Of a DNA stretch of 20,000 bases, positions 1 to 20,000 are shown in pieces. The notes under the pieces are model-generated. The model saw only the letters and a program-made list of their open reading frames with translations. It was not told the origin of the DNA and searched no databases. The position numbers and the translations under genes were made by a program. This DNA is from Psammoneis japonica (Eukaryota), in contig QPGO01000276.1 in NCBI GenBank assembly GCA_008632985.1, forward strand, positions 56,994-76,993. Direction: 5' to 3'. Positions within the stretch are counted from its first letter, which is position 1; the number at the start of each line of letters is the position of its first letter.

Positions 1-612
1 CGCAACTATACTGTCTTTTTCTTTCTCTTCTTCTTGTTGTAGTTTAATAAAAGCGTCCTCCCACTCGGTAAAGGTGCGAGTGACCACAAACTCTTCAATC
101 TTGAACTCGTCATTGAGTCGAAACCGCGTTTGACCTTCCACCGCCATGGGAGTATTCTTTGGAGCAATGCCACAACTCGTTCCAGTCCATGTTCCGGTTT
201 CATACCAATGCGCCACAACCCAATCGCCTCGTTGACCGCATTCTGGACCGTAATGAAATTTAACGACGCAATCCGGGTGAGCCGTGACAAAATCCATGCA
301 CCGATCCACCAAATCCTGTGCCTTGACAGTGCGTTTGCTATCGTTGATTCCACAAACGTCGCGAATTGTTGCCTCTTGAGCAAAACAATCAAGAATCATT
401 TCTGGATCTTGTTGATTGACTCCCTCAAAGTACTGCTGAACAACAGTCTCCATGGCTGCTTTTGTTTCTTGATCGGAAAGAGTAGTAGAAGAAAAAAGAC
501 TCATTCTGTTGGTGTTTGTGTCACATCGAACTTTATTGAGTCCCACTATGCTAAAGGCGCTTGACCTCGATTAAAGAGACGCCAGTATAATGAGCTTGCT
601 CTTTAGCATCAT
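1..612 (-). CDS. SnoaL-like/NTF2-fold protein, 3'-partial (runs off the window start); putative bipartite plastid presequence interrupted by one in-frame TAA at 573-571; frame open from Met at 504
   Basis: My translation of a minus frame absent from the ORF track (no stop inside the window): MMLKSKLIILASL*SRSSAFSIVG...MSLFSSTTLSDQETKAAMETVVQQYFEGVNQQDPEMILDCFAQEATIRDV...DFVTAHPDCVVKFHYGPECGQRGDWVVAHWYETGTWTGTSCGIAPKNTPMAVEGQTRFRLNDEFKIEEFVVTRTFTEWE. The pattern V..YF...N..D......F...A / GD.V...W...GT..G...GI.P......V.G......D.KI is typical of SnoaL-like proteins. TpA, CpG and Tyr content are normal here. Confidence 0.8.
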
Positions 613-658
613 TGTCACACTACAACTCAAAGAAATAATGACAGCCGTCGACGTGTGT

Positions 659-865
659 TGTCGGAGGGAGTTCCCGAGATTGAATCGGATTAGTCGGGAA
701 TCCCGTAGAAGATCTTAGAGGACGAAGAAGTTCGAAGAACAGCAAGACTCAGAAGACATTTGACAAGATTGAATTTAGACAGAACAGATCAGAAAGATCA
801 TAATTTTAGAAAAGCAAAAGTTTACAGAGAGACAGAATACGTACAGCCCTTGAAGCCCTCGAACA
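659..865 (+). repeat. 5' LTR (207 bp)
   Basis: TGTCGGAGGGAG...CCCTCGAACA; aligns without gaps to 7409-7615 with 15 mismatches. Confidence 0.97.
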
Positions 866-935
866 TACTTCGAAGTATAATAGGCGAAGGCCCAAGAGGC
901 TGGGAGACTAGAGAGACACTTGAGTGTTAAGTAAG

Positions 936-1086
936 ATGGAGATTGCAGGAGAGAAATCGGTGCGCTTACCAAGCTTTGATGGTGAGCATAAGAACTTTCA
1001 GATCTGATGGATGAGGATGCTTGCGCATGCTAGTGTGTGCGGATTTGCGCAGGCAATGAACAAGACAGTTGAAGCAGCGGACTTGC
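936..1086 (+). pseudogene. copia gag N-terminus, interrupted by the nested DNA element
   Basis: MEIAGEKSVRLPSFDGEHKNFQI*WMRMLAHASVCGFAQAMNKTVEAADL has the copia gag LP.FDG..NF..W..R motif; it continues after the insertion at 3727 (PDAETDVVDETADD). Confidence 0.85.
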
Positions 1087-1162
1087 GGCAAAGATTTCAT
1101 GCTCGTGGCTGGTTAACGACAAGCCCATGACCCAATCTCTTTGTCTGACTTCGAGCCAAAGT

Positions 1163-1270
1163 GTTAGTGTAAATCGTTAAGTGTCATTTCCACTTCGACA
1201 CAAAGAAAGCTAAATGGTTAGCGTAAATCGTTAAGTGTCATTTCCACTTCGACACAAAGACAGCTAAATG
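1163..1270 (+). repeat. Subterminal tandem duplication, 2 x 54 bp
   Basis: GTTAGTGTAAATCGTTAAGTGTCATTTCCACTTCGACACAAAGAAAGCTAAATG (1163-1216) is repeated at 1217-1270 with 2 mismatches. Confidence 0.95.
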
Positions 1271-2575
1271 CTTAACGGCAGTGGTCAGATTTCAAAATCT
1301 GAGCAATACAGAAATGTCAATGATGAATTAGGATTTTTGATTGCATCTGCCGTAAATGTCATTACGCCAATTGCACTAATGAATACACAAATGAATTTGT
1401 ATTCCATCCTTTTCCTGAACTTTGATCTATCGGCATTTTCGATACGAGTACGCGATGACAACAATAAGGCATGCTTGTGTGTGTCATGGCCATAAGCTGT
1501 GAGGCGTACCATCACATTTGGATTGAACTCGGGGATCTTGATGTCGAAAGTAGCCATTTGTTTGACATTCGTGATTTTTCATCGCCCACAAACTGGGATT
1601 TCAACTGAGTCGAGTTGATGTTGGACGTGTTTCAAAGCACTGCATTTGATGAAACAATTGAGGGCTCTGGAATTATGGCATTTTATGCCATGGAGACTTA
1701 AAACAGTAAATGGGTTGACAATCAAGCAGTGATCGGGTTTGCCAACATTTCCAAAAATGTGACAACAAAAATTGCATCACTCAACAACCAACAACATCTC
1801 AAGAGATAGAAACAAGAAAAGTGACTCCTCTTTGCACTTGAATTAAAAGAGACAACAATGCACAACAAACATTTGAGAAGGACAAGAAGCTCTTGAATGC
1901 ATGGAACAAGAAGAGAGTCAATGAATCGCTCTTGCTTCGAACCTCATGACCTGTTCTCTCCATGATGGTGGTTGGCTGAAAGTTTGGTGGTGGTTTTTTA
2001 TGTGACTTGCAGCTTGAGGCATGTTGATGCATGAACACATGGCCCATGTGTGGTGTCACCTTTGGAATGTGCCACTTGTGGAGTTTGAGTGGACAACTCT
2101 CTGTGCTCAACCTTTGTCCGCCAAATGCTCCGTCAAAGTCCAGATGCTGCCCCATCCCACCCGACCATTGACACAAAACAGTTCTTGCAAAATGTTGTTG
2201 CCTGTTTCCCTCTTCCTCTGCAGAGCAGCTCTCTTGGTGACAGTGCTGCCCACATACCAGAATGTGCTCAAGAATGCTTTCCATTTTGCCAGCCAAGACA
2301 CCCAACTCGGGGCTGTGTGGGCTCGAATCTCTCTCAAGACAAGCTGACATTTGTGCCTGGCACTGGTGGCAACGCTGAGCCCTCCTTCCTGTTTGACTTC
2401 CCAGGAGTGTGCCCAGACCTCCTGCATGCTGGGTGGCTCAACCACAAGAGTTGCTGTCTTTGTTGGTTTTGTCAGCAGGATGTGCCAAGGCTGCTCTGGC
2501 CATGTGTGCACGCCTGGCTGGCACCACAAGTCCCGGTGCAAGGACAGCTCCGACAGCACTTTCTGCTGTCAGCAA

Positions 2576-2802
2576 AGAGTGTGAGCTGGCTGGACTGCCA
2601 AACCCCACACTTCACAGCTCCTTGGCAGTCACTCCAAATCAAGTGCCAACTTGGGGTCAACTGCACCTGGCTGGCTGCAATGCAAAGACAGCTGTGGCAG
2701 CACTTTGTGACAAAAAAGAGAGTGTGAGCTGGCTGGGCTCCCAACCCCACACTTCACAGCCCCTCAGCACTGGCTCCCAATCAAATGCCAGCTTGGGGCC
2801 AA
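2576..2802 (+). repeat. Diverged internal direct repeat, ~85-bp copies 143 bp apart
   Basis: AGAGTGTGAGCTGGCTGG...AACCCCACACTTCACAGC...AATCAA.TGCCA.CTTGGGG.CAA at 2576-2660 and 2719-2802. Confidence 0.8.
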
Positions 2803-3726
2803 TGGCTGCAAAGCCATTGTTGCAAATCCCTGTGCCTGCTCCCTCACACAGCTGTGCACAGGGTCAACATGTGTGGCCTTTGCAAGATGGGCCCCTGGCT
2901 GGCTGCTGACTCCTCAGCCACGGCTTGCAACAAGCCACCACAACACAGAGCATTGTGGGGTGAGTGCAGCACAGCTTGAACAAGCAAACCATGCTGAGAT
3001 CACCCAGAGTTGGCTGCTGTCCTGGGGCTCCATTCAAAGCTGAGCTGGGCTGCTTGGCTCCTTGGTGTGCAGCACATGCTTGGCATCACATTCTTGTCGC
3101 CAAGCAGCCACATGGCATGTGCCCACCATTTGTGCCTGCAACAGTGACCCCAGCCACAAAGAAGCCAACAAAAAGTTGAACCTGTTTTTGTGGTTGAAGA
3201 GTGAAGAAACAGTGAGCAAAGTTTGGTTCAAGATTTGTTGGCAATGCCAAGTGCTGGGCAACCAAAAAGAGGTGCCAAAAATGGCTGTTCTCACTCATTT
3301 CTCAAGAGGAGCTTGCACTCATGATGCAGGGTCTGAAGCAAGCACCAGTCAAGATGACAGTTTTTTCTCTCTGCTCCACTTAAAACACAGCCTTTGAGTC
3401 AATGTGGTGCTCTTTCAACAACTCACGCACACTGGGAGGAGCAGCTGGAGCCAGGGCAGCTGGCCTGGCAGGGCTTGGATGACACCCAAGCTGGGCTGCT
3501 CAGCCTGGTGGCACACACTCAGCGCCACATTGTTGCCCTCCTGCAGCCCGCAATGTGCCCCACTCTTGGCACCTGCAGCAACCACCCTGGACCAAAAGAA
3601 GCCAGCGCAACTCTGGCCATGGTTGCATGGTCAATTGTGTGTGTGTGTGTGTTCAACGGTTGATTCCCCTCTTTTTTTCTCTTTTCCTTTAACCGGCCAC
3701 GAACATGAAAAAATTGCCGGACTTGC

Positions 3727-5318
3727 CAGATGCTGAAACGGACGTTGTTGATGAAACTGCTGATGACGGAAAGAAGAAGAATGAAGCAAAGAAACGAAAT
3801 GTGCCGTTGCAGCAGCAAATTTCACGATGGCGTTTACTGCTGAAGGTCTGATGGGCATTGTGTGTGCTTCTCAGATGACTGAGAGGCCCGGTGGGCTGGC
3901 ATGGAAAACAGTGAAGGCATTGCACGAGATGCACATGCCGCAGGACCTGATTTCGAAGGTCGAGTTGCATCGCGAATTGAACAAAGTGACATTGAAGGAC
4001 AATGAAGAACCTGGAAAAATGTTTGAACAGTTGAAAGGGATTGAGAACAAGTTCAGTGCGGCATCACACAAGATTCCTGATGATGAGTTGATTGCCATCA
4101 CATTTGAGAAAGCACCCAAAATGTGCAAGTCGGTTGTGACAACTGAACAATGCATCCAAGGCAATGATTTGGAAATGAAACATTTGCAAGAAGCAACGAT
4201 GCAGTTGTGGAGGAACACAAGTGGTGGTTCCGAGCAAGAGAGTGCAAATGAAGTGAGTTTGACAGTGACAGAGTCGAGCATCATGTGTTGCAACTGTGGA
4301 GAGAAAGGGCACAAGGCCCATGAGTGCACCAAGCTGAGGAAACCCAAGAAAGGTGGCAGTGGTGGAGAAAAGAAATTTAAAGGAAAGTGCTTCAGCTGTG
4401 GTGAGACAGGTCACAGGAGCAAGGATTGCTGGATGAATCCTGACAACGCGGACAAGGCTCCAGCATGGTTTAAAGAGAAACAGAAGAAGAGCAATGAGAC
4501 CGGATTGTCAAGTGTGGATGCCGGAGCTAAAGTCGAGCTGTTGCTGACAAGCACGGAGACTGTGGAGTTTCCAGCAACTCTGAAATTGTTGGAGTCGGAA
4601 GAAGTGTGGGTGGCAGATTCAGGATCATCAGTTCATTCTTGTGCAAGCATGAGAGGTGCCAAGAATGTTGAGCGAGCAAGTGCTGATGACAAATTGACCA
4701 TCAGCAACAGTGCAGAGGAAGGAGCAAAGTCTGTTGTGGACTCACCTGGTGCCGCATGCAACAAGAATGGATGTGAGCTTGTGGACGCCACTCTGAAGGA
4801 TGTCAGCATTTTGCAACAAGCAACAAGTTCAACCCATTTGGCATTGCCAAGATGCAGATGCAAGGATGGGCACTTGGAGGTGACAAGAATGTGACATGGA
4901 TTCGCAAGAATGGTGTCGAGATGAAATTCGACATCAAGATGCACACGAATCGAGGTGTGGCATTCGCAATGCACATGAAACGAGGACAAGGCGAGTTGTC
5001 CAACGCAATGACACCAAGGAGGCTCAGCATTGAAAGAGCCCATTGTGAGTTGGGACATCCAAATGAAGACAAGACAAGATGCATCACAAAAATGTTGGGT
5101 TGGGAATTGCTCATGGTGGTTTGGTGCTGTGCGAATCGTGTGTGGTGGGAAAAGCCAAGCAAAAGAATGTGCCACAGGAGAGTGAACACAAACCTGCTCA
5201 GGATGCAGGCAACCAAGCATTTTTGGATGTTGCAAGCATCAAGCAAGTCAAGGATGGTCCCAAGGTCAACTCCAAATGCTGTTGGAGGATTGTGGTTGAT
5301 GAGCGCACGCAGTTGAAC
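3727..5318 (+). pseudogene. copia gag (UBN2-like region, two CCHC zinc knuckles), aspartic protease and integrase N-terminus; frameshifted
   Basis: CCNCGEKGHKAHEC and CFSCGETGHRSKDC knuckles; protease VWVADSGSSVH; integrase HHCC region AHCELGHPNE...CESCVVGKAKQK; first core Asp region AFLDVASIK...WRIVVDERTQL. Confidence 0.93.
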
Positions 5319-5401
5319 CCCATGAACGCCAAGAGGCGATTGGAGAGCTGGCGCACCCTGGAGAAGACATTGCACTGGAAGCAACACCTCAAGAACCCCA
5401 T

Positions 5402-7370
5402 GTGGAAGTCGGGGAGAGCACAGATCAACCAACGGAACATGATGAAAATGAAAATGGTGACAACGAAGAGCCAACGGAGTCTGTTGGCGGGGGAGAGATG
5501 AATGAATCGGGTGATTCTGCCAATTTTGCACCAAATTTTGTGCCAACGACTCGATCTGGAAGAGCCATGAAACCGCCCAATGGACTCATTGCAGAGATTC
5601 AAAATGTCAAATTGACACCCGCTGAACAGAAATTTTGTGCTCACATGAAAGAACTGAATGTGTTGTCATCATTCTGTGAAGATGGTTTTGATCTGATGAT
5701 CATGCATGGACTGGAGCCAAAAGGACCAGAAGCATCTTTGGTCGGAGCCGGAGTCGGAGCCGGGTTCGACAATGCGGTGGAATTGAAAGTCATGAAGCAC
5801 AACCAAGCCATGCAGACTGATGATGTGGAAGAATGGAATGATGCAGTTGAGGAAGAGCATGGCAAATTCCGGAGGTGCAAGGCATGGAAAGAAGTGCCAG
5901 CTGATGAGGTGCCGCACGATGCGAAAATCTTAAGTTCAATGTGGGCCATGAAGAAGAAAGCAGACGGAACCTGTCGTGCAAGGATCAATGCTTGTGGGTT
6001 TGAGCAGATTGATGGAGAGCACTGCAAAGAAAGTGACAAGTCAGCACCAGTGGTGAATGACATCACAGCATGAATCGCGTTGGTTTTGATTGTTGTGGCG
6101 AATTTGTGGGCCGAGCTGCTGGGCATTCAAGGGGCATTTCTGAATGGAAGATTTGCTGAAGGAGAGAAACTTTGTGTGAAAGTTCCACAAGGATTTGAGA
6201 GATTCTATCCAGAAAACGATGCATTGTTGTTGTCAAGGACAATTTGTGGATTGAAACAAGCAGCGATGTCATTCTGGTGCAAAACGCAGGAGGCATTCAA
6301 GAAGATGGAACATGCAAGGAGCCAAGCTGATCCCTGCTTGCAGTTCAAGTGGTTCAAGGAAGGATTGGTCATGTGGCTGACATGGGTTGATGATTGCTTG
6401 GTGGCAGGACCAACCAAACAAGTGAAAGAAGTGAAAGATCAGATGAAAGGTCTGTTCAACTGCACCAAGCTAGGAGAATTGAAAGAATGTGTTGGATGCA
6501 AGGTTGACATTGAAAGAGACAAAGGATGGGCAAAACTTGCACAACCAGTGATGATGCAGAGCCACAAAGACGAGTTTGATTTGGGAGAAGAAACTTGTCC
6601 AAGGACTCCAGCGCCGGGAGGCTCATCACTTGTGAAAGGCAAAGACAAGGAATTAATGGAGCACAAGGATCAAAAGATTCACAGATCTGGAACAGGAAAG
6701 TTGCTGCACATGATGAAATGGACAAGACCCGAGATTCTCAATGCAGTGAGAGAGCCATCAAGGCACATGAGTGGTGCTGTGAGAGCTCACATGGCTGCAA
6801 TGAAGTGGGTGATGCGATGCTGTGTGAGAACACCGAAGAGAGGATTGTTGTTGAAACCAAATGCCAAGTGGAGCAGAGCCAAGGAGCATGAATTTGTCAT
6901 TGTGGGCAAAAGTGATTCAGAGTGTGCAAAAGATCAGGAGACGAGGCACAGTGTGAATGATTGGAGCATGCATCTACACGAGGTGCCCATTTCGATGCGA
7001 AGCAAAATGATGCCCGTTGTTGCTCTGTCAGTTGCAGAAGCAGAGTTGTTCAGTGCCACTTTGTGTGCACAGGATGTGATGCATGCTGTGAGGGCATTGA
7101 ATTCCACGGGATTAAAGTGAAGCCACCTGTGAAGTCATGTGTTGACAACAAGGTTGCCAAGGATTTGATCGACAATTGGAGTGTGGGCGGATGCACGAGA
7201 CACATTGAAGTCAAGCAGCATTTTTTGAGAGAACTGAAGGAAGCTGGCATCATTGATTGTGTTTGGGTCAGTGGAGATGACATGACTTCCGACATTTTTA
7301 CAAAGAATTTGTCTGGCCCTACATTTGAAAAGCGTGCAATGAAATTTGTCGGCAATTGCAAGTGCGTGGA
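5402..7370 (+). pseudogene. copia reverse transcriptase and RNase H; one premature TGA and one frameshift
   Basis: WAMKKKADGTCRARINACGFEQ, GAFLNG, VKVPQGF, RTICGLKQAA, ADPCL, TWVDDCLV, TRPEI; RNase H SDSECAKD, ALSVAEAEL, VDNK, TRHIEVKQHFLRE, SDIFTKNL. Confidence 0.96.
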
Positions 7371-7398
7371 GAGCACAACTGAGACACACAAGATTCCT

Positions 7399-7408
7399 GA
7401 GGGGAGAG
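7399..7408 (+). other. Polypurine tract of the copia element
   Basis: GAGGGGAGAG directly abuts the TG of the 3' LTR. Confidence 0.9.
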
Positions 7409-7615
7409 TGTTGGAGGGAGTTCCCGAGATTGAATCAGATCAGTCAGGAATCCCGCAGAAGATCTTAGAGGATGAAGAAGTTCAAAGAACAGCAAGACTC
7501 AGAAGACATTTGACAAGATTGAATTTGGACAGAACAGATCAGAAAGATCGCAATTTTAGAAAAGCAAAAGTTTGCAGAGAGACAGAATGCATGCAGCCCT
7601 TGAAGCCCTTGAACA
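7409..7615 (+). repeat. 3' LTR (207 bp)
   Basis: TGTTGGAGGGAG...CCCTTGAACA, followed by TSD TGTGT. Confidence 0.97.
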
Positions 7616-7718
7616 TGTGTTTCATGGTTGTTGGTTGTCATTTTGATTATTTTTGCTGCAGACCTTGCAAGCGAAACACGTCATCATCAGTCACGAGTGA
7701 CAGATGTTTGAGCCAGTC

Positions 7719-9007
7719 ATGAGTCCAAAGATCCACCCGACAGCAGGCAGATGGCAATGGCACAGAGCATTTGGTTTGTTGCATTTTTTGAGTTTGTTGC
7801 TGTCACTCTTGCTTGTAAGTTTCAAGTTGCTGTGAGGCTTGTGGTCACTGTGATTGCTGTTGTCTTGCATTGCTGACAAAGAGGGACAGGAGACAGGCAT
7901 TGTAGAAATAGATTCAGTTGCCCGTGATGACCGTGTGGAACCTGATGAAAAGAAGCACGTGACAAAAGTCGTGCTGATGGGTCTTGCTTTTGTCTTGCTG
8001 GGCATGTCTCTTGGATTTGCATCCTTCTACCTCATGTTCCTTGCGCAGTGCGGGGACCTTGTTGAAGAACTGGAGGGACATCACAAGTCGTCTGTGCAAA
8101 GGTTGCAATTTCAATGCAAGCAGTGCGTTTCGGAATCCAAGAATGGCACCGAGTTGGAGGAAATCAAGGGATAATTGGAAGCTCAAACCACCCTAAAGCA
8201 GCAGCACCAGGGTGTCAAGGAAGAGCTCATCAAGCTTTGCAATCAAGACAGCATGTTGAATGAGCAAATTCAAAAGCTTCGAGAGCAACTTCACGAAGCC
8301 CAGAATGACCTGTCGCGGTTCATGGATGAGCACAAAAGGGAAAAAGCGGAACAAATTTCTGAGCAAGCCAAGCAAACTTCTGAGCAAGCCAAGAGAGAAC
8401 AAGACAAGTTGCAGGAAGAAAATCAGTGCCAGCTCCTGCAAATCTCTGAACAAGCCAAGAGCTTGCAGATCTCCAATCCACAGCAAACGAGTCAACTCAA
8501 AAAGCACCCAAGCTTGGTGCTTTGAATTTGGACTTGGAGAAATGTCTCTCAGAGGCTCAGGCAGGCATGGAGCCATTTCAGAAAAAGATTGATGAACAAG
8601 CCCAGGAATTGGGGGAACTTTGGGTGGAGAGGATGCAGTTGCTTGAGCACCAGAGCACGTCAGCTGAAACAGTTGCGAAACTCAAAGAAGATTTAAAGCC
8701 CGAGACACACGAGATCATCAAGTGCACGGAACACTTGCAGGCAATGTTGATGCGAGAAAATGTTTTGCATTGATGCAAGCAATCTGCCAAGGATGCATCT
8801 GCCAGCCTGCCGTGTGTGGATGAACATGATGAATGTGAAGCATGGGTGAGCAAGGGCAAATGCACAGCCAGCCCCACCCACATAAATCGATTCTGTCGCA
8901 AAATGCGTAAAATTTGTCCGCAGAATGACGACGACACTGAAATCAAGTGGATTGATGACAAGGCTGCACCAACTCTTGATGAGAAGTTTGCATCGAACAA
9001 GCAGTGA
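7719..9007 (+). pseudogene. Host-type gene remnant: hydrophobic N-terminus, TM helix, long coiled coil, C-terminal ShKT domain; putative intron 7815-7889
   Basis: ATG at 7719, MSPKIHP...FGLLHFLSLLLSLLL; a 75-bp GTAAGT...GCTGAC...CAG intron joins in frame to ETGIVEIDS; TM VVLMGLAFVLLGMSLGFASFYLMFLA; E/Q/K-rich heptads; CVDEHDECEAWVSKGKCTASPTHINRFCRKMRKIC (8813-8917) fits ShKT with one Cys lost. Stops at 8172 and 8771 and a frameshift near 8480-8520. Confidence 0.7.
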
Positions 9008-10382
9008 GAATCTTGCGAGTGCAAACGTGCCCCATGGCAGCTTAGGATGCCCACGCACATGAACCCGTTGTGCATCTGGCACGGAAAATGCCTGCAGCCC
9101 TACAACCAAAGACACTCACATCACTCTGCGCCACATCCAGCATTTTGCTCTTAGCACTGCAGCTCCCGAAAAGACACTCTCGTCAATCACAAGCATGACT
9201 CATCTTCCAACACAGCATTGCACAATTGCGAGCCTCTTGTGAGCAGGCTTTGAATCATTTCCTCAAAGTTCAATCAAAACACCAATGGAGCTCAAGGTTT
9301 CTTGCGAACGCTGCGCTGTTTCTGGACCCAATTGCCCACATGACGATGGATCTTTTTTTTACATTTCCTTGTTGGAACATGACAATGAGCATTGTCACAC
9401 ACTGGCATGTGTTGAAAGGTGTTCAATCTTTCACAGTTGGCATCCAATCCCCTGTGATGTGCATGACCTGACTCCAAACCCCAGTCAAAGCTACAATTGA
9501 AACGAAATTGGTCAGCTAAAGGTTGCGTCAAGCAGCTGCTAGACCGCGTGTCATGGACGGTCCCCTCCGGATGGGGCCCCGACGCAATTTACAATCAGTG
9601 GCAAGTCCTCAAAAAAGCATGCCATGGCTTCTATCCCATTGCAAGTGCTTTTTGAATCCTCCCCACCTGTCTCTTTGCCGTTTTGCCTGGCAGCAAAATT
9701 GCAATTGTTGTGGAATTAGCCGGCTGAACAGTTTTTCAGCAAAGTTTCAATGAGGCAGCAGAGTGAAATGATTGCTTGCCCGTGGAAACCAGCAGTTGAA
9801 GTTTTGGACAGGAAAACCTTCTCACAGGCTCCAGCAAGCAGCAATGTGCAACAAAAAAGGAGGGGGGACAGGTGGCGTAATCTGTCATCTGCTCTGCCAC
9901 TGAGCTACATTGCAATGGCTGCTGTGGTTGGACTTGAACCAACGATCTGATCCTCAGGAGGGCAAGATTGAATTGAGTTGCTGTTTGCCACCTGTTTCTG
10001 TGGAAGTTGTTGAAACATGTAAAGAGTGTGATGAGCAGATGCTCGAGTGCAATTCAATGTACGTGCTGTACACAGCTGGCGCGATGCAGTCTGGATCGGA
10101 TTTTGAGTCATGGCACGCAGAAAGAGACTCTTCGTGCCCCTGTTTAGATGGAGACATCTGGACGTCCGGCATGTCCCACCATTCGAAAATGACTTTTAGC
10201 TTCTCCTTGTGGGAGGGTGGCACCTCCAATCCAAGATGACCGGAAACACTCCTCAGAACTGTGACCGGCAAATCTCTTGGTTCCATCTCTCACTTTTCCA
10301 GCTTTGTTGGAACAGGAACATTGATCACTGTGACTGGATCATCTCAAAAGCTTGGAAAAGTTGCTCTTTCTCTTTTTTCACC

Positions 10383-12853
10383 ATGTCTGACTACTTTGCT
10401 TCGGGTCTTGATGACTGTGCGTTTGTCAACCTCGTGCATCAGCTCGAATCGGATGTGCTTTTGCCTCACTCGTCACAGTCTCCATCGTTGCCCACTCCTC
10501 AGGCTCGCCCCCTTGGGGCTTTGCTTCAGGGGGTCGCGGGGCTTCAAACCCTGGTGTGAGGGGCTCAAGTGCGGGCAGGGACTCTGGGAGTCACAGTCAT
10601 GGGCCTTCAGACATTGACCGGGCAGAATTGGGAGAGGTCATCTCCATTGAGGATGTTGTGCATCCTCTCTTCCGGGAGGGGCAAAGCACCAATGATCAAG
10701 TGTTGGATCGCTCATTGCATGTTGGTTTCTTTGGGCCGGAGGAAGGGAAGAGCAAGCGTGGTGCTGGGGAGACAGAGGAGGAAGGTGCATCTCCTTCATC
10801 ATCTCATGTTCCGCTTTGTTGCATTGCTTGGCTGGAAGGGACCAATGGCAGCCGTTGCCTTGGTGTCAAGGGAGGCGGCGCTGCTTTCTGTCTGAAGAAG
10901 GCGAGAGAGAGTGCCAGGTCAAACACAAGGGAGACAAGCTGCAACTCCCGTCCGATGGGTTGCTGGCAATTCTCAAAACACTGGACACAGCTTTTTGTCA
11001 ACCGGTTTTGGATGGTGGGTTCATTGCCGGTGACGTTTTGGTCAGTTGGGAGACAAAAACTGACACCTTGTCTGGTTGGCGTAAAAAGTTCTTGGTCGTT
11101 GGGGACAGTGAGGAGGTGATGACAGAGGAGGAGCTGGGAGCCTCTCTCCTTGAGTGCAAAGCGGCAGCTGATTTCAAAATGCCCGGTGGGAAGAAAGGTT
11201 CGAGCCTCCCACCTCCAGGTGATGGGAGAGCATTTGGTGCATTTAGCCCTTGCCGGCCGATGATCACAACAACCCCCACTCAGTTTTTGGCAGCAAACAA
11301 GGGTCCATCTGCCTTGGCCTGAGTTGCACAGTCCGTGGAGGATGGCTCACAGAATTTGGGAGAAGTTGGGGTTGACATGGGAAACCACTCTTGCACACAG
11401 GGCAAGCATTCCAACAGTGCAACGGACCTGCTCAGTTGAAAATTGGATCAGTTGGAAGCAGCCGTTGGGGTTCCTCCTCTTGGGTTTGATCAGGCCATCA
11501 AAGCACCTGCCATCTGGGGGACTTTGGCTAATGTCACGGCTGGGTCTCAGCCTCAGAGTGGAACTGACACAGTGGATGAGATCAAGGAGAAGCTCAGGGC
11601 ATTGGACTTGAAGCTTGTGACCCACTCTAACAAGCTGGTTGCGTCCTTCAGTGCACAACTTCAAACCTTTGAGGGTCAGATGTCAGGATTTGCGGCCAGC
11701 AGCGATTTCAACTCCCTGAAAGAAAATGTGTGTCGTGTGCATCAGCAGTTGGCAGCCAAGGTCCGAAATCTGGAATTGTTGGGGCCCCTGGCTGGGGGGG
11801 TGGCTGCAGGAGTTGGTTTGGGCTCGGTCACGTCCAGTGTGGAAGCTCGCATCGCGCGATTGGACCAGGACTTGAGCAAATTAAAGTCCAAGTCAGACAA
11901 AGCGGCTGTGAAGTTCTCCAGAGTGGGCGTTGCCTTGTGCGGAGAGTGCCAGGCTTGGATGGCAAGGCATTTCCTGTCCAGGGCCTGTGGGTGTCTCACT
12001 GATGCAGTTGTCTCAATGGACAGGATCAAGGGAATTGAGCCAGCCGCCCTGTGTCACTGCTTGGGGCAGTGGGCCAAATGTGAACATTGAGACTGAGGAG
12101 GATGCCCGGACCTTGGCAGGGTTCCAGTGCAGGATGCCTCACTTGCTGGACTCAGGCTCAGTCAAGGCAATGGAGTTGCTGGGGTTGCATCCTTCACACT
12201 TGGACAAGGCACCTGCACACGAGCATTGCAGAAACTTGGGAACTGAGCAATTCATTGAGTCAAAAATTGGGACCGCAGAGATGGGCGTGATGGAGGACAC
12301 AAATCAGCGGGTTGCAGCCGGAACCTTTGAGAGCCAGGTGGTGCGGGACACTCTGTCTAAGTCAGTTGCTTTCATTCGTTCCTTGTGTGCCTTCATCAAT
12401 TTGACCTGCAATTCCTTGACAAGTTTGAGCAAGTTTTCAAAGAAACAAGCATGGTCTTTAGCTTCAAAGCTGGTTTGTTGAGTGTTTGATGACATCCAGA
12501 AGGCGCGTTTGGGGGTGTTCACGACGATCAAGGGGACCGATCCGGATTCTGTCTGCAGCAAGATTTTGTGGACAGTCTTTCGCGCCCATGACATTGTGTC
12601 GGAGCACACGTCAGCCAGTTTTGTGTTGATTGCGTTGGAGCATGTCAAGTTCCTGGTGACAAATTCTGGCTTCAAAGCAGTGACGGATCTCCAATCGACG
12701 GTGAACTTGCTCATGGAAAAGTCCAAGAATGCAAGCTTGGCAGCTAAATTGGCACAGGCCGGGGGTGATTTGGCCCACGTGGAAACTGTTGAGCTTTGAA
12801 ACGAGATTAAAGAAATGGGCAAATGGATTGAGACATTGGAAAACAAGAAATGA
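10383..12853 (+). pseudogene. ORF1 (gag-like) of the YR retrotransposon, fragmented
   Basis: Consecutive + strand fragments from MSDYFASGLDD to ...KWIETLENKK*, including a Cys/His cluster (RCLGVKGGGAAFCLKK..CQVKH) and coiled-coil stretches; assigned by position upstream of RT. Confidence 0.6.
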
Positions 12854-12857
12854 GGGT

Positions 12858-15800
12858 CATGGGGACCGGAGAGCGACGACCTCACAGACCCGCTTGTGAA
12901 CCTGTGTCTGCCGGCAGCCCAGGTGACACAAGGCATGTGGTTTGGGGGGCAAAACCCTTTTCTTTCTGTGGTTCATGTTTGGTTGTTGCTTCTGGTCCCC
13001 CTGTCTGGCTGCTGTCTCTGTGGGTGGTAGAATGGTCAGAATTCTTTTTGGCGACCAACGGTGCGGGAGACACACAGTGGACCCAGTTGATTTTGGAACT
13101 CTTTTGATCGCAAATGGGACCTGCGCTCACCCCTGTCCCCTTGAACAAGGCACCCCATGTGGTGGACAAGGTGGACTTGGCCCTGGTGTCAGGCCTGCCC
13201 CCCTTTTTGGAAGCTTCAGGTTGGTTGATTCAAAACTCCCCTGTGATCATGGTCCCGGTGGGGAGGGGATCCCGGTGGTCTTTAAAAGGTTTGGGCCACT
13301 GTGACAGCCTTGGTGTGTCACACCCTTCTGTGGGGGGTGTTGCGTCATTCCGGATGACCCTGTTTTGACAACGAATCATCCTCCCGATTCTTTTGGATGG
13401 GCTGCACCTGTCCATTGGCCACATTCTAGACCATGAACTGGCAGCCCCTCCGGTGGATCCCCGCTTTCCTGGCACTTCTTACCGGGAGGACGACAAGCTT
13501 CATCCGGGGTCTCTGACCCGACCCATTGTTTGCCCATCCCACAGGTCACAGACAGGGTGGGTCACCCGCACACCATCTCCAGATGAAATGCTTGCAGCTT
13601 GGGACTTTCCCCTTCGACATTGCAGCCCGGTGGTGGTGGAGAAGGTTCGGGGAGGGGAGGGTCTCTTGGCCATCATCCCTTTGAACATTCTGTTGGCACC
13701 TCTGGAGTCATTTGTCCATGGGGTTGGTGCAAAATGAGGGTCTTGTACCTCTGGGGTCCAAGGGGGATCAACGCCAGCCGTCGGGCAATGAGCAACAGCA
13801 ACATGGCTCAAGGGAGTGGGTGGCTGCTTGCCCCACTTGTGGACTGACATCTCTCTCATCACCACCAAGGCTGCAAAAGGGGACAGCATGGCCCCCCCAT
13901 TCTGGCTGTGGGACAAGCAAGTTACGTTGGTGTTTCCAGAATTTGGGGCCACCTTGCCTGCTCTCTGGACTTTGGGATTGCGGCAGTGGCCCTGGCACAC
14001 CACTCGTTCTTTTCTCAGCTGTCTGTGGCACACATGTGGGTTGTCCTGGTCAGACTCTTTGGGGGTTCTCTGCAGGGAACACGGGGATGCCGAGGGGCAT
14101 CGTCAGGGGGGGGGTGTTGCCAACCCCCGCTCCCGCCCTTGTTGATGGACACAACTTCAGGGGTGGAGGTTCTTCTCCAGGTGACGGAGAGTTCCTGGTG
14201 GGGGTGGGACAGCGGCTCCTCACTGCTGTTTTGGCGGTGTCCTGCTCCCGCACAACGCACTGCCATGCATGATGGCATCCCAATCTTCGTTGAGGGACCC
14301 CTGCCGTGTAATTGGAAGAGGCAATGTGTGAGAGGAACCCCTCAGGAAATCCAGCAAATGGCAGACAAGATTCAGAAAGTGTGGACCCAAGGACACATTC
14401 AGCGGGGTCATGTGGTGAGTCTTGCTGATTGCTTCTGGGTCCCCAAGACAGTGCAAATGGAGACCCAGGGTCAAAATTTAGTTGAGGTTGTGGAAGATGT
14501 CCCCGCATGGTCTGCAATGGGACCTCTTTGGGTTTGAATGAGGCGCTGTGGGCCCCCTCCTTTTTCTCACCCACCCCAGCTTCGGTCTTGGGCTGTGTGA
14601 CAGTGGGTGCTTTTTCTGTGGACCTTGACCTAAGTGACATGTTCCTAAATTTTTTCATGGATCCAGCGATTTGCCCATGTGCTGGGGTGGACTTGTCCCC
14701 TCTCACCCTTCATCTCCCAGGAGAATTGACTCCTCCCAGCTTGAAGCGGTGGACGAGACTTTTCATGGGAATGCGACCGAGCCCACATCTTGCTGTGCGG
14801 TGCTGCCATTGGGCCAACGAAGTGGCAAGAGGTGACCCACTGAGAGCCAACAACGCAATGGGTTTCAACAAGGTCATTCTAAACTTGCCAGGTGACCCAA
14901 ATTTCAGCGTGAGTGAGCCGATGGTCATGAAATGGAACACGAAGGCATGATCTCTTGCAGGAGACGTAAAAACCTTTGTTGATGACTTGCGTGGGGTGGG
15001 TTTGGGTGAGGAGGCGGCATGGCAGGTGGGCCACCAAATGGCATCTAGGCTCCAACATTTGGGGCTGCAGAATGTGAGTCGAAAGGTTCGGCCTCCATCG
15101 CAAGCGGAAACGGGGGCCTGGGCTGGCTGCATTTTTTGCATTGCAAATGGTGACGTGACACAGTCAGTGTCTCAAGCCAAATGGGACAAGGCAAAGGGCA
15201 TTGTTGCTGACCTTCTCCAAATGCAAGAGGGCACACCAGACCAGTGCTCACCCTCCTTTGGACACAAGGACTTGGAATGTAAGCGAGGCTTCCTGGTTCA
15301 CTTGGCAATGACCTGCCCCTGGCTTGCCCCGTTTCTTAAGGGTGTGCATCTTACCTTGGACTCCTGGTGGCCAAATCGGAAGAAGGACAGATGGGCCATG
15401 TCAGGAAAGGAGTTCTCTAGTTGGGCACACCATGTTGCTGAGAAAAGGGGGACAGACGTGGTTGATCTCACAGAAAGCTTGTCGGGAAGGAAATCACCTG
15501 GTTCTGTAACGGCAGTGCCTAGACTGCAGTCAGACTTGCAAGTCATTGCTCGAATTCTTGAATCTGATGCTCCCTCTGTTCATTTAATTTGGTCTTCAAA
15601 GATCATGGCAGTCCTCTGTGGGTTTGGAGATGCTTCTGGTGAAGGTCTGGGAACATCAGTGGAAACCAAGGACGGGACCATTTTGCACCGCATTGGGGCA
15701 TGGGGGGAAGATGAGGCTGGAAACTCATCAAATTGGAAATGACTGTCTAACACGGTAGACACCATGGAGGAGATGGCTGAGGCAGGTGACTTGGAGGGAG

Positions 15801-16664
15801 TCAGCCTTTGCTTCTTTGCTGACAATTCGGTTTTGGATGCAGCTAATTACAAAGGCACGTTGTCTAGCCTGATGCTGCTTGAGCAGGTGATTTGCATGAA
15901 GGTGCTCAAGGTGAAGCACGGGTTCATGTTCCATCTTGTCCATGTGTCGGGGAGCCGGATGATTGCCCAAGGTGCTGATGGGGTGTCACGGGGTGTCCTC
16001 TCTGAAGGAGTGATGAGTGGTGTGAAGATGTTGTCCTTTGTTCCCCTCCACCTCAGCCCTGCAGCTCAGCCTCCAAAATTGTTTGATTGGATTTGCTCTT
16101 GGGCTGGAGCTCCGACCCCAGAACTGCTTTTGCCTCTAGATTGGTTCCAGAAGGGCCATGACATCTCTGGATGGGAATGTCCAAAACACAAAGCAATGGA
16201 GATGCCCACATTCCATCCCGGAACATGTTGCCAGGATAAAGTGACAGGATTCCTTCCACATTTCTGCTTGTCCAAGGTTGATGACCCTGGAATGGCAGAA
16301 GCAATCACACAAGGCTGCAGATTTAGTTTTCATGGTCCTGGCAGGAGCGGGTCCCTTCTGGCCAAACGAAATGCATGAACCTCTGCTCATTGGCCTTGCT
16401 TTTCCATTTGTTCCTCACAGGCCCTGGCAGTTGTGGGGTGCCCCTAAAATGCACGCAATGAACTGGGCCCTGTGCTGTGTGTGGGAAAATGACAATGTGG
16501 ATGAAAGGAATCTTTTGTGCCAATTTTGTGCACAGTGCAGGTCTCTGGCCACCTTGTCGGAAGGCATGGTGTCCAGGCTGTTGTGCTTCAAGCAGAAGCG
16601 TGACGTTCCATCTGGGGGGCACGACGTTGCAAGAGGATCCAAACAAGGACAAACTAGCTCCTGA
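12858..16664 (+). pseudogene. pol of the YR retrotransposon: long N-terminal extension, reverse transcriptase, RNase H, C-terminal tail
   Basis: RT motifs FWVPK, MVCNGTSLGLN, DLDLSDMFLNF, WTRLFMGMRPSP, KTFVDDLR (FVDD at 14975-14986), WAG; RNase H GFGDASGEGLG, SSNWK*L, FFADNSV, HLVHVSGSRMIAQGADGVSRG. Confidence 0.9.
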
Positions 16665-16728
16665 TGCAGATGGGGGACACGTGGAGGAGAATGAGAGGCA
16701 TTGAAAGCCATGTGACAAGAACAAATTC

Positions 16729-17961
16729 TTGTGCGCTCGTGTGGGGCACCATCTCATGGTTTTCTTTGAGTGTGATTTCTGTGTCTTCCACAAACTGTGT
16801 CAATGGGAGCCCCACCCTACGTTGCCATGGGATGAAGTGGCTTTAGCGTGCATCCATCGGGTGATCTTGGATGCCTTCTGGAGCCGAGAGACAGCAAGGA
16901 GAGGGCTTGCCCTCTCTGAGCACCTCGGGCTCTCAGGACCTCATCTGGAGCCAGGACCACTCCCAGCACATGACCATTGCGGGTGCAAGGTGGCCATGCA
17001 GATTGTTTTGGGATCAACCTCCCCTGGGCGGCATCCCACCTCTTGCACACAGTTCAACACTGTTCGGAAGTTACGGACAGCTTGCACCAACCAGGTTCAA
17101 GCCGCAGCTCAAGCCAATTCTTGCCCCCTGGCTTTAGCTGATTTAGAAAGAAAGCAGCATCTGCAGATGTGCAAGGATCCCTGCACATTGTTGTGGTTCC
17201 AACACTTTGTGACAGGATGCAAGAGACGCATGGGACAAGATTGGTGACCTGACCGAGCTGTCTTGGCAGAGACAATGCAGCACCTCCTCCCTTGAGTGAA
17301 GGAGAGAGATTTCAACTCGGAAAGTGACATGGAGCAGTTCACCTGTCTGGTGGCAGGACTGTGTTTTGTGGCGAGCTTTGTGCTTTTGTTGAGAGGTTCC
17401 GAGTGATTGATGATTGACTTGAATGCCATGGCGAGATGCCTCCCGAGGAACTCCTTGCATGTGATGGCACCTTTGTTGGAATGGGTCAAGGGAGAGCATG
17501 GAAAGCGGTGACACTTGTTGCCATGTGTTGATGTTGCTTTGTCAGGGATCAATGTCCATCAATGGGTGGAACAGGCAGTGTCCATCCACGCAGGTTGAGG
17601 GTGGTCTCGGGGCCTGGCAATCTCTGATGCAGCAGCTGTTGTGCTTTCATCTCATGAGCTGAACTCCCTTTTGCACACTTGCTTGGGAGACATTTGTGAT
17701 GAACATCCTGCTCCATTCACTGCAGACATCGGTTCCCATGCGGACATCCAAGAAAAACATGACGTCAGCCGATCTTTTTGCAGAGGATCAGACTCTTGGG
17801 CTGTGGCCCAAAAGGTTTCACCAGATGACATTGATGTGGTGAACCACTGGAAGAAGAAGGAGGGGGCGGGGGGAGTGAGGCCCACCAACAAGATGCAACA
17901 GCATTGTGCTGACATCTCTCTTCTTCTCCCATCACTCTTACGCTGTGCCAAGGCCATGTGA
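16729..17961 (+). pseudogene. Tyrosine recombinase of the YR retrotransposon
   Basis: Catalytic-order motifs LLRGSE (R), VKGE (K), SRSFCRG (HxxR-equivalent), VNHW (W) and MQQHCAD (catalytic Tyr position, now Cys at 17905-17907); several TGA stops. Confidence 0.82.
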
Positions 17962-18204
17962 CTTGAGTCTGTCCCTGACTTTGGACAGCATTGGAAGGTG
18001 ACGAATTTCTTCTCACTTGTGAGGTGGCCACTGCCTGGGAGTCTCATCAGGGGGGAACATGTGCTCGGCTTGGCCCAGTTTGACCTGGGGAGTCGCTGGA
18101 CCAAGCACTGGACAAGATCAGCAGAGCACTTTCATTCGGTGACCTGTGCTCCGATGTGGGGGAACCGGGTCTGGCATTTCTTCTACAATTTGGGGGGAGA
18201 AAAA

Positions 18205-20000
18205 ATGTTCAAGCCTGAGATGAAGTTGCACCCTTCATCATGCTGAGCAGCAACATTTGCCATGCAACACAAAAAGATGTCAAGGAGAAAATCATCTGCC
18301 ACACACAGAAGGAGTGTGAGCAAGGCATGCATCTGGCAAGATCTCCAGAGGACATGAAATGCAAGGACTGTAGTTCAGAGAACCCCCGTCACAAGCATCA
18401 ATGGTGGAACCTGACATCACCATTGTAGACTGCCAAGAGAAGGTGCAGACAAAAGAGCAAGAAAACAAAGAGCTGAAATGTGAGCACAAAACAGAGCTGA
18501 GTGACTGCTGCAGAAAAGTGGCACAGCTCAAAGTCAAGAAAACAAGATGACAATGATTGCCAAGATCTTAGATGATTCCTGCACCAAGTTGATGAAGCAG
18601 AGAATGCAAGGCAGTCCCACCAGTTGTCCCAGCACAAGGGATGATCCAATCAAGTTGTTGAAACTGATCCAATCTGTTGTGTTTGACTCATGAGAGGTCA
18701 ACATCCATTCTGTGCATGTGCCAATGCCATGAAGAACATCTCAGATGTGAGGCAACAAAAGAACACAACAAAAGAACAAATCACCAAATGACCACCTGCT
18801 CATGTTCAAAACCAGCAAGATGTTGCAAGCAAAGGACTGGGAGACAGGATGCTGGATGGATCCATCTCCAATGCCAAAGAATGTCAAGACAGAGATCATG
18901 CAGCACTGCGCAGAACAGCACTCAAGGGGTCAGCAATCAAGACATGGATGACCTGCCTTCTCATGGCAAACAGCACCAACTGTCATTGCAAGAGTTTGAA
19001 GAAGAGCTTTGTGAGAGTTTGGGTCCAGGCAAAAACACCCACCCGAAGTCTCCAGACAAGGCAATGGATGCATTGTTGAACCACCTGGAAGACAGTGATC
19101 CTCAAAATTGACACAAGAGCAAGAAGAGTGGCAAACAGAAAGACCACAAGGGTGGCAATGGAAACAGTGAGAACAACAACAATCAGTCTGACAATGCAAA
19201 GGACCAGAGCCATGCCCAGAAGAGCAGCAACTGTGAAGTGGCAGTGTGCTGCTCAAGTCCCCAGGCTGCAAACACTGAAGGATGTCATGCACAGCAACTG
19301 GCTCAGGAGAGCAAGAACAAAACCAGACACTGGGGGACAGAGTCATGTGCAGACTCGAGTTGGCAATGACAACCGCTCATTGGTGAACAGTGACAACATG
19401 AGTGCCCACACCACCAGATCTGACCAATCAACCTGCTCTGGCCAAAGCAAAAGTGCTGCATGGCATGGGTTGCAAGCAGCAAACAAGAGACCAGAGACAA
19501 GTGCAAGCCAAACCAACAAAGGCATCAAGAGATGTGAGATCACCTTCAACAATGGCTCTGCCCTCAGCATGGCAGCAAGCCCAAGATTGATGCACAACAT
19601 GCAACCAGCCAAGATCAAGATTGACCTGTCCACAAGTGCAGGAGAGGACACCCTGGACAAGGACTGCACACCATGCCCCAATGGGGAGGGGTGCAAAGCT
19701 TGGAAAAGAGAACAGGACAGCAAACATCCTCAGCCTGCCAGAGCAATGGACAAGTTCAGGTTGCTGGACAAAAGAAGACTGGCAAGCAAGTCATGGTGTT
19801 CAGAGTTGATGACATTGGACCACATGCACTCCTCACACCAAGCCAGCAATTCTTGGACCACACAAAAGATCTCCAAGAAAGTGAGTTGTGTGTGAGCATG
19901 CTGTCAAAGAAAATGAAAAAGAGCAACAAGAAGCACAGGAATGCACCCGGAGCTGTGGCTCCAATGGTGGAACAGAGCTCCAAATGCTTCGCTGAGAGAG
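18205..20000 (+). mobile_element. Second, strongly decayed LTR retrotransposon (diatom copia/CoDi-type) gag-protease, continuing beyond the window
   Basis: Gag-like KPEMKLHP, HATQKDVKEKII..QKECEQGMHLARS.EDM and LCESLGPGKNTHPKSPDKAMDALLNH; protease-like ITFNNGSALSMAASPRLMHNM...LSTSAG (recalled family pattern LDNGST.S...P.LV.NI...TNAG). No LTR identified. Confidence 0.65.

Follow-up and report, generated by a model that had tools for sequence, protein, structure and literature searches.

How can two long terminal repeats (LTRs) that were copied from one template come to differ at 15 of their 207 positions, when every one of these positions lies in a CG or a TA dinucleotide and all the others have stayed alike? 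The question is raised by a degenerate Ty1/copia LTR retrotransposon, which occupies positions 659-7615 of a 20,000-nucleotide stretch of contig QPGO01000276.1; the window, below, means that whole stretch. The original prediction, made from this DNA alone, read the LTR pair as the trace of a directional change of TpA into TpG or CpA on both strands of repeat DNA, running beside the decay of CpG. Such a process is supported by four lines of evidence, namely the composition of the surrounding domain, the outgroup proteins of two elements, a paralogous copy with CAY in place of the TGY of the window, and mutations measured in Bigelowiella natans. The best explanation, which we hold to be probable, is that the copia element extends across the boundary of a silenced domain made up of foreign DNA, that two context-specific transition processes have been at work within this domain, and that the one at TpA is most likely of the B. 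natans type.

The LTR pair and its two surroundings

First, the repeats themselves leave little room for ordinary substitution. A repeat search, a MAFFT alignment and a position-by-position comparison agree on two 207-bp direct LTRs on the forward strand, at 659-865 and 7409-7615. They have the ends TG...CA, and both are bordered by the 5-bp target-site duplication TGTGT, at 654-658 on the left and 7616-7620 on the right. As predicted, exactly 15 sites differ, all of them transitions in CpG or TpA context, with no indels. Seven sites have CG in the 5′ LTR and TG or CA in the 3′ LTR (662, 687, 696, 723, 734, 841 and 860). Another seven have TA in the 5′ LTR and CA or TG in the 3′ LTR (691, 706, 777, 801, 824, 839 and 843), with four TpG and three CpA outcomes, and at the single site 800 the 5′ LTR has CA and the 3′ LTR has CG. 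The 5′ LTR holds 9 CG and 9 TA, and 3 CG and 2 TA are left in the 3′ LTR. CG and TA together take up 38 of the 207 positions of the LTR in its inferred original state, and the probability that 15 of 15 differences fall there is about 9e-12. Divergence is 0.39 per site at these positions, versus none at the 169 positions outside them (95% upper bound 0.018 per site). For CG and TA the data thus demand a rate of change more than about 20 times that of the remaining positions, an excess that methylated CpG can reach.

The changes are also unequally shared. If TpA was lost rather than gained, they are split 14:1 between the two LTRs (binomial P 0.001). TpA was then lost at 7 of 9 sites in the 3′ LTR and at 0 of 9 in the 5′ LTR (Fisher 0.002), and CpG at 7 of 10 versus 1 of 10 (Fisher 0.02). 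The asymmetry is accounted for by the position of the two repeats, since the 5′ LTR stands in a domain of ordinary composition and the 3′ LTR in a depleted one. The ordinary domain, 1-1900, has a GC content of 43%, with rho CpG 0.88, rho TpA 0.46 and rho CA+TG 1.29. In the depleted domain, 2001-20000, which runs to the end of the window, GC is 51% and the same values are 0.35, 0.09 and 1.63. All 18 of its 1-kb intervals have rho TpA of at most 0.23, and 94 TA remain in the whole of it, compared with 72 in 1-1900. CpG and TpA both fall inside one 500-bp step, 1501-2000. This edge lies within a transposon nested in the copia element, and a host gene starts about 1.3-1.5 kb away from it. Each LTR has the dinucleotide values of its own surroundings (rho TpA 0.57 and rho CpG 1.04 in the 5′ LTR, 0.13 and 0.34 in the 3′ LTR). 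The depletion is not that of the copia element only, for it covers part of the nested transposon, the copia element, unassigned DNA and a second retroelement-like unit.

A 14:1 asymmetry with P 0.001 is also what would be expected if gene conversion or recombination had replaced one LTR, in which case the pair would be no clock for the locus, and at least one paralogous copia copy of about 87% identity exists. However, a donor diverged by about 13% would have brought differences outside CG and TA as well as indels, and there are none in 207 bp. A crossover is spoken against by the intact TGTGT duplication. The domain boundary accounts for the asymmetry by itself, and a process at TpA would still be required for donor and recipient to differ as they do. 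Replacement of an LTR is thus very improbable.

The polarity of the seven TA sites needs more care. They might have been CA or TG at insertion, so that the 5′ LTR gained TpA by C→T at CpA, by a mechanism like repeat-induced point mutation (RIP) or by deamination at non-CpG methylation, while the 3′ LTR lost CpG only. This reading needs nothing beyond C→T deamination, a well-known chemistry, and divides the changes 8:7 rather than 14:1 between the LTRs. But it demands 7 CpA hits and 1 CpG hit in one LTR, versus 0 and 7 in the other. It also fits the surroundings badly, as RIP raises TpA, whereas the domain of the 3′ LTR has a TpA/ApT ratio of 0.10 and that of the 5′ LTR is ordinary. The TpA-loss polarity of the original prediction is thus upheld at these seven sites by their surroundings, though not by an outgroup LTR. 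The opposite polarity is further opposed by the coding sequences, where the direction of change can be read against other proteins.

Direction of change in the coding sequences

For the reverse transcriptase (RT) and RNase H part of the copia element, the best 60 homologs (44-58% identity) served as outgroups. A column was taken as conserved if one residue was common to at least 60% of at least 15 homologs, and 326 copia codons qualify. Tyrosine is conserved at 11 of them, where the window now has CAY (His) in three, TGY (Cys) in six, CAG (Gln) in one and TAT in one. Tyrosine was therefore replaced in 10 of 11 columns, compared with 69 of 315 for the other residues (P 4e-06). Among the 79 mismatches, 41 can be reached by one transition, and these paths comprise 22 TpA losses (13 to TpG and 9 to CpA), 10 CpG losses and 9 other changes; the remaining 38 have no single-transition path. 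The second coding region, at 12892-17956, was compared with 150 homologs, with a similar outcome. It keeps tyrosine in none of 10 conserved columns (His in three, Cys in three, Phe in three, Glu in one), and 74 of 313 other columns are changed (P 9e-07 for the excess at Tyr). Of its 34 conserved arginines, 13 are now Gln, Cys, Trp, His or stop. The one-transition paths are 19 at CpG, 11 at TpA and 10 elsewhere, and 44 mismatches are without such a path.

Over both elements, tyrosine is kept at 1 of 21 conserved Tyr codons. No gain of TpA was found among the polarised coding changes, and no conserved His or Cys column of the copia element has turned into Tyr. To judge from these alignments, TpA is lost on either strand, and not gained, in the coding parts. 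All polarised changes (22 and 11 TpA losses) thus run in the reverse of the direction in which the 5′ LTR would have had to gain TpA, and that polarity is very hard to credit.

A paralogous copy shows the same outcome in another form. Contigs of runs X1-X4 were mapped on 1-7400 at 80% likeness, and what is said here of paralogs holds among the matches listed. At 6023-6024 and 6173-6174, both in conserved Tyr codons, the paralogous copia copy has CA where the window has TG. It follows that an ancestral TAY became CAY in the paralog and TGY in the window, independently. As for the timing, an RT with nearly all of its tyrosines replaced cannot have been functional, so that most of the decay is best placed after insertion.

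Other copia families appear to have been struck as well. Among the 120 homologs listed, three proteins from a JGI source (P0051, P0070 and P0088), 49-54% identical to the RT of the window, have a tyrosine content below 0.6%, compared with a median of 3.3%. At conserved Tyr columns they have His or Cys in 4 of 5 (P0051), 7 of 8 (P0070) and 3 of 4 (P0088), with choices that differ from those of the window, which argues that these families were hit independently. A metagenome scan with P0088 gave no relative. With P0070, it gave one weak and unrelated locus (L001, 33% over 47 residues) and no further hypermutated loci.

Could the pattern be an artefact, produced by systematic miscalls at modified bases or by a chimeric assembly? 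Logan contigs of run X1 are identical to the copia interior over 969, 871 and 846 nt (2686 nt in three pieces), and one of them spans the junction of the 3′ LTR, from 7400 through eight letters of 7401-7408 into the repeat. Run X1 is possibly the sample behind the assembly of the window itself, and this match is not independent confirmation; contigs, too, drop rare variants. On the other hand, a k-mer assembly of that run reproduces the interior over these 2686 nt and the junction. The pattern respects the codons in both protein families and varies from one paralog to another, and His or Cys stands at the same conserved Tyr columns in the three proteins of other copia families. In B. natans, moreover, the published process was detected with Illumina reads of separate lines (Mettrop et al., bioRxiv 10.64898/2026.01.13.699255). 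An artefact is thus scarcely credible.

The process at TpA and its relatives

The original prediction knew of no named pathway for a loss of TpA, which is now out of date. A preprint on B. natans (Mettrop et al., bioRxiv 10.64898/2026.01.13.699255, version 2026-04-14) describes TpA→TpG/CpA hypermutation of integrated foreign DNA in mutation-accumulation lines. In 15 such lines, 231 of 302 nuclear point mutations fell in two integrated viral regions, and 230 of these 231 were A>G or T>C changes, each of them at a TpA. Their rate was about 1000 times the background, and only some of the lines were affected. Changes other than AT→GC numbered 1 of 211 in the region derived from a nucleocytoplasmic large DNA virus (NCLDV) and 0 of 20 in the virophage region. 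In the B. natans genome, 124 clusters of 1-kb windows are depleted of TpA and enriched in CpA and TpG, and the TpA-poor genes are enriched in reverse transcriptase and DDE domains. The authors liken the process to RIP and propose a defence by an ADAT2-like DNA adenine deaminase (Mettrop et al., bioRxiv 10.64898/2026.01.13.699255). The original prediction had envisaged such a RIP-like defence and an adenine deaminase as well. A literature search for B. natans and hypermutation found no further paper on the subject.

The likeness of the window to this process is close. In both, TpA turns into TpG or CpA on both strands, in bounded tracts of foreign DNA that form TpA-poor clusters rich in CpA and TpG. 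Among the 20 1-kb intervals of the window, 13 pass both cut-offs of the preprint, including eight consecutive ones at 2001-10000 and four at 16001-20000. The DNA that was hit is foreign or mobile (the copia element, the nested transposon and the second unit), and the neighbouring SnoaL-like gene and the first 1.9 kb are ordinary. The change is A:T→G:C at TpA with both outcomes, and the LTR sites fit it at the polarity argued for above. The process at TpA is thus most likely the one that was measured in the B. natans lines. The depletion is far deeper in the window, with a rho TpA of 0.09 versus 0.45 in the NCLDV region of B. natans. The record also differs in kind, being an LTR pair with decayed retroelements, while the terms CpG, LTR, retrotransposon and copia do not occur in the text of the preprint (Mettrop et al., bioRxiv 10.64898/2026.01.13.699255).

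The course of events that we propose is as follows. A Ty1/copia element would have settled upstream of a host gene, at a distance of about 155 bp, and a terminal inverted repeat (TIR) transposon would later have struck it. Inside the domain, two processes would have run far ahead of ordinary substitution. One is the change CpG→TpG/CpA that deamination of 5-methylcytosine usually leaves behind. The other would be an A:T→G:C change, targeted to certain regions and made at TpA only, in which the strand that is struck would decide between TpG and CpA. The 3′ LTR, lying within the domain, would have decayed, and the 5′ LTR, outside it and beside the host gene, would have been nearly spared. As to chemistry, the change may be an enzymatic deamination of adenine to inosine in DNA at 5′-TA-3′, read as G in the next replication; this is put forward tentatively, with confidence just short of even. 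The CpG decay is probably a separate process that shares the domain and does not belong to the same burst, because the hypermutable regions of B. natans are almost without GC→AT changes. On the simplest reading, it is a slower 5-methylcytosine deamination in the same silent DNA.

Several observations weigh against this account. First, the window has lost about as much CpG as TpA per site, whereas the B. natans lines show almost no GC→AT change in the hypermutable regions; the CpG losses may be older or slower, which lowers the case for a single burst but not that for the same process at TpA. Losses of CpG and TpA need not share a cause or a time. Second, the two processes are equated by their signature, on which the link to B. 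natans is more likely than not, and the connection to silencing or methylation, as well as to an enzyme, is inferred. Third, the polarity of the seven TA sites is taken from the domain, from the direction of change in the interior and from the published spectrum. Fourth, the edge may be less sharp than it appears. The right part of the nested TIR element has no TA differences from other copies among the matches listed, so that TpA may already have been scarce in it at the time of insertion, and the real edge at this locus could lie anywhere in 1087-3717. The window has TA at 1808 and 2000, where most other copies of the TIR element have TG, and it has CA or TG at 1253, 1279, 1358 and 1479, sites at which TA is found in some or all of the other copies. 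These differences among copies imply that some change at TpA also took place in or near the ordinary domain.

Another possibility is that the losses of CpG and of TpA are both outputs of one chromatin-targeted system. A silent domain, probably marked by 5-methylcytosine, would recruit an editor of TpA, or a single deaminase would hit both self-complementary pyrimidine-purine steps. An active host gene would stop the spread, and the two LTRs of one element would age at rates that differ more than tenfold. This alternative is doubtful, but it carries real weight. Decay of CpG by deamination of 5-methylcytosine is itself familiar, and CpG→TpG/CpA is indeed found in the window, polarised by the arginine codons and by the 10 and 19 paths counted above. 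Here, it is restricted to the silent-looking domain, and methylation would be its presumed cause. Literature searches gave no chlorarachniophyte methylome among the papers listed; support for DNMT6 orthologues in Rhizaria has been described (PMC9998398).

The lesion may also lie on the other base. In this scheme, a TET/JBP-type enzyme oxidises T at TpA into 5-hydroxymethyluracil (5hmU) or 5-formyluracil, which mispairs with G or is mis-repaired, giving T→C. Oxidised thymine is known to mispair with G. The footprint is the same TpA→CpA/TpG, because TpA is its own complement, and A→G on one strand cannot be told from T→C on the other by the 13 TpG and 9 CpA outcomes in the copia element or the 4 and 3 in the LTRs. 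Dinoflagellates make 5hmU with TET/JBP homologs, and there it is enriched on transposons and aids their silencing (PMC11572971); according to studies of the 1980s that PMC11071213 cites, it stands in TA and TC contexts in Crypthecodinium. However, base-resolution mapping in Breviolum gave no TA preference (PMC11071213), the candidate of the preprint is ADAT2-like and not of the TET/JBP type (Mettrop et al., bioRxiv 10.64898/2026.01.13.699255), and neither the window nor that preprint shows 5hmU in the source organism. A thymine lesion is thus rather unlikely. An explanation of the whole locus by dinoflagellate 5hmU at TpA was dropped: the spliced-leader motif had 0 matches in the window with up to 3 mismatches, and nothing else pointed to that group. 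The nearest atlas clusters are eukaryotic, and diatoms, plants or haptophytes are their commonest taxa.

Among known defences, fungal RIP is the nearest in style, being a dinucleotide-specific transition mutagenesis that wrecks mobile DNA and leaves a scar in its composition. It is marked by a high TpA/ApT ratio and a low (CpA+TpG)/(ApC+GpT) ratio. The direction differs, since RIP makes C→T changes at CpA and so creates TpA, whereas the window loses TpA and gains CpA and TpG. The indices of 2001-20000 accordingly lie outside the range of RIP and point the opposite way, with a TpA/ApT of 0.10 and a (CA+TG)/(AC+GT) of 1.86, compared with 0.52 and 1.37 in the 5′ domain. The main target in B. natans is single-copy (Mettrop et al., bioRxiv 10.64898/2026.01.13.699255).

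APOBEC and ADAR enzymes offer another parallel, as deaminases that hypermutate mobile elements with a preference for the neighbouring base. ADAR prefers U before the edited A, and the preprint remarks that this preference matches the TA motif (Mettrop et al., bioRxiv 10.64898/2026.01.13.699255, Discussion). An ADAR-like A-to-I hyperediting of transcripts before reverse transcription might then be thought of. But these enzymes act on cDNA or RNA before integration and leave the LTRs alike. Both LTRs are copied from one template, so that edits made before integration cannot differ between them, yet the LTRs do differ. The change in the window came after integration and follows a chromosomal domain rather than an element. 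The depletion continues unbroken, on both strands, through a DNA transposon, unassigned DNA and two unrelated retroelements to position 20000. Editing at the level of RNA is thus the least credible of the explanations considered.

Elements of the window and meaning of the locus

At the left end of the window, a host gene of the SnoaL/NTF2-like type lies on the reverse strand at 1-504. Its 5′ part is seen here and the gene continues past the window start. It matches the Pfam families SnoaL_2 (3.1e-09) and SnoaL (2.7e-08), and has a tyrosine content of 1.8% and an observed/expected (o/e) CpG ratio of 1.06 in 1-500. The first in-frame ATG, at 504, is presumably its true start. It is about 155 bp from the 5′ LTR of the copia element, and the two are divergently transcribed. 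Across the start of the gene and the 5′ LTR, the CpG o/e ratio is about 1, which resembles an unmethylated promoter region.

The copia element begins with the 5′ LTR, which is followed by a leader on the forward strand at 866-1077, of near-normal composition (CpG 0.70 and TpA 0.69 in 866-1074). The leader is cut by a nested, non-autonomous and high-copy TIR element of about 2.6 kb (1087-3717), with terminal inverted repeats of about 28 bp and a 9-bp target duplication, CGGACTTGC, at 1078-1086 and 3718-3726. The length of this duplication suggests a Mutator-like element. Its summed word depth in run X1 is 5000-9400, compared with about 100-250 around it. In a diverged copia paralog the insert is absent, a contig joining 1074 to 3718. 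Several contigs link the end of the TIR element (3718/3719) to its start (1086-1090) via 5-9 varying letters, which suggests head-to-tail pairs at different sites.

Downstream of the insert, all copia features lie on the forward strand. A gag region with a CCHC zinc knuckle (3785-4894) has no tyrosine in 370 residues; zf-CCHC is matched above its cut-off (1.9e-07), while Retrotran_gag_2 reaches 15.9 bits against a cut-off of 27 (0.0094). The reverse transcriptase, at 5606-7117, has one internal stop, its conserved Tyr codons are nearly all CAY or TGY, and it matches the copia-type family RVT_2 at 3.9e-15 (56.6 bits against a cut-off of 31.6). A search at E≤1e-10 gave 150 homologs, and PF07727 is present in most of the 120 that were listed. 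Copia relatives in public data are 44-60% identical. The RNase H side of pol is in another frame (7096-7485, located by tblastn of homologs), and the longest alignment enters the 3′ LTR. Immediately before that LTR stands a purine-rich tract, GAGGGGAGAG, at 7399-7408, which by its position would be the polypurine tract. No integrase family was found by Pfam in the open reading frames (ORFs) of 4777-6073, so that the order of integrase before RT is not seen in this copy. At 5317-5388, the place expected for the integrase core, the window has 70 letters and a paralog contig 680, a difference that fits a deletion in the window copy.

The second unit, at 12892-17956 on the forward strand, is unrelated to the copia element and has broken frames with the same codon decay. 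Its protein family (P0121-P0270) gave 1796 matches at E≤0.001, many of them 1200-1350 aa long, and motifs like those of RT (FVDD) and RNase H (DAS) were seen by eye. Pfam detected no family in 14 ORFs taken from the nested element and from 10-20 kb, nor in four long homologs of this family, and P0123 had no PDB sequence match. The unit may belong to an unannotated family of retroelement polyproteins.

Further traits of the depleted domain may be added. Long ORFs are unusually dense in all six frames of 2001-20000, because TAA and TAG are almost gone, and ORF length is a poor guide to genes there. TGA makes up 849 of 989 stops (86%) in this domain, versus 89 of 170 (52%) in 1-1900, and stops number 27.5 per 1000 codons versus 44.7. 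The surviving TpA stand in ATA/TAT in 8 of 94 cases, compared with 28 of 72 in 1-1900 (Fisher 3e-06), and in CTA/TAG in 51 of 94, compared with 20 of 72. The process may favour certain neighbouring bases, or C→T changes at CCA/TGG may have created new TpA. As the two domains differ in base composition and CCA/TGG can yield new TpA, no conclusion on enzyme specificity is drawn from this bias. The most extreme stretch of the window is 18501-20000, with a CpG o/e of 0.04-0.10, TpA of 0-0.03, TG of 2.2-2.4 and a strong skew of A over T (0.35-0.39); it has no assigned family.

For those who work with such genomes, loci of this kind set several traps. An LTR divergence of 7.2% that includes no change at 169 ordinary sites means that LTR dating fails and that insertion ages are grossly overestimated. 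Long false ORFs, opened by the disappearance of TAA and TAG, mislead gene finders, and protein families lose tyrosine and slip past domain searches. As to the process itself, the idea of TpA loss is already in print as a 2026 preprint, and the window is a well-resolved further instance. What it adds to the preprint is threefold: the LTR pair serves as a clock, CpG has decayed in the domain that lost its TpA, and this domain ends close to a host gene that looks active. Should the window come from B. natans, its locus would probably be one of the 124 clusters already counted there, and would corroborate the process rather than reveal it. The locus is an independent record, read from sequence only, of change after integration, in which retrotransposons and a DNA transposon were hit besides the viral inserts known before. 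Its edge near the host gene is sharp, and the CpG decay within the same domain raises the question whether TpA-poor clusters are the methylated and silent ones. Erasure of TpA from invading DNA is a rare and newly reported defence of eukaryotes, which opposes the near-universal GC→AT mutation bias, and if the window is from a lineage other than B. natans, the process would be shown in a further lineage.

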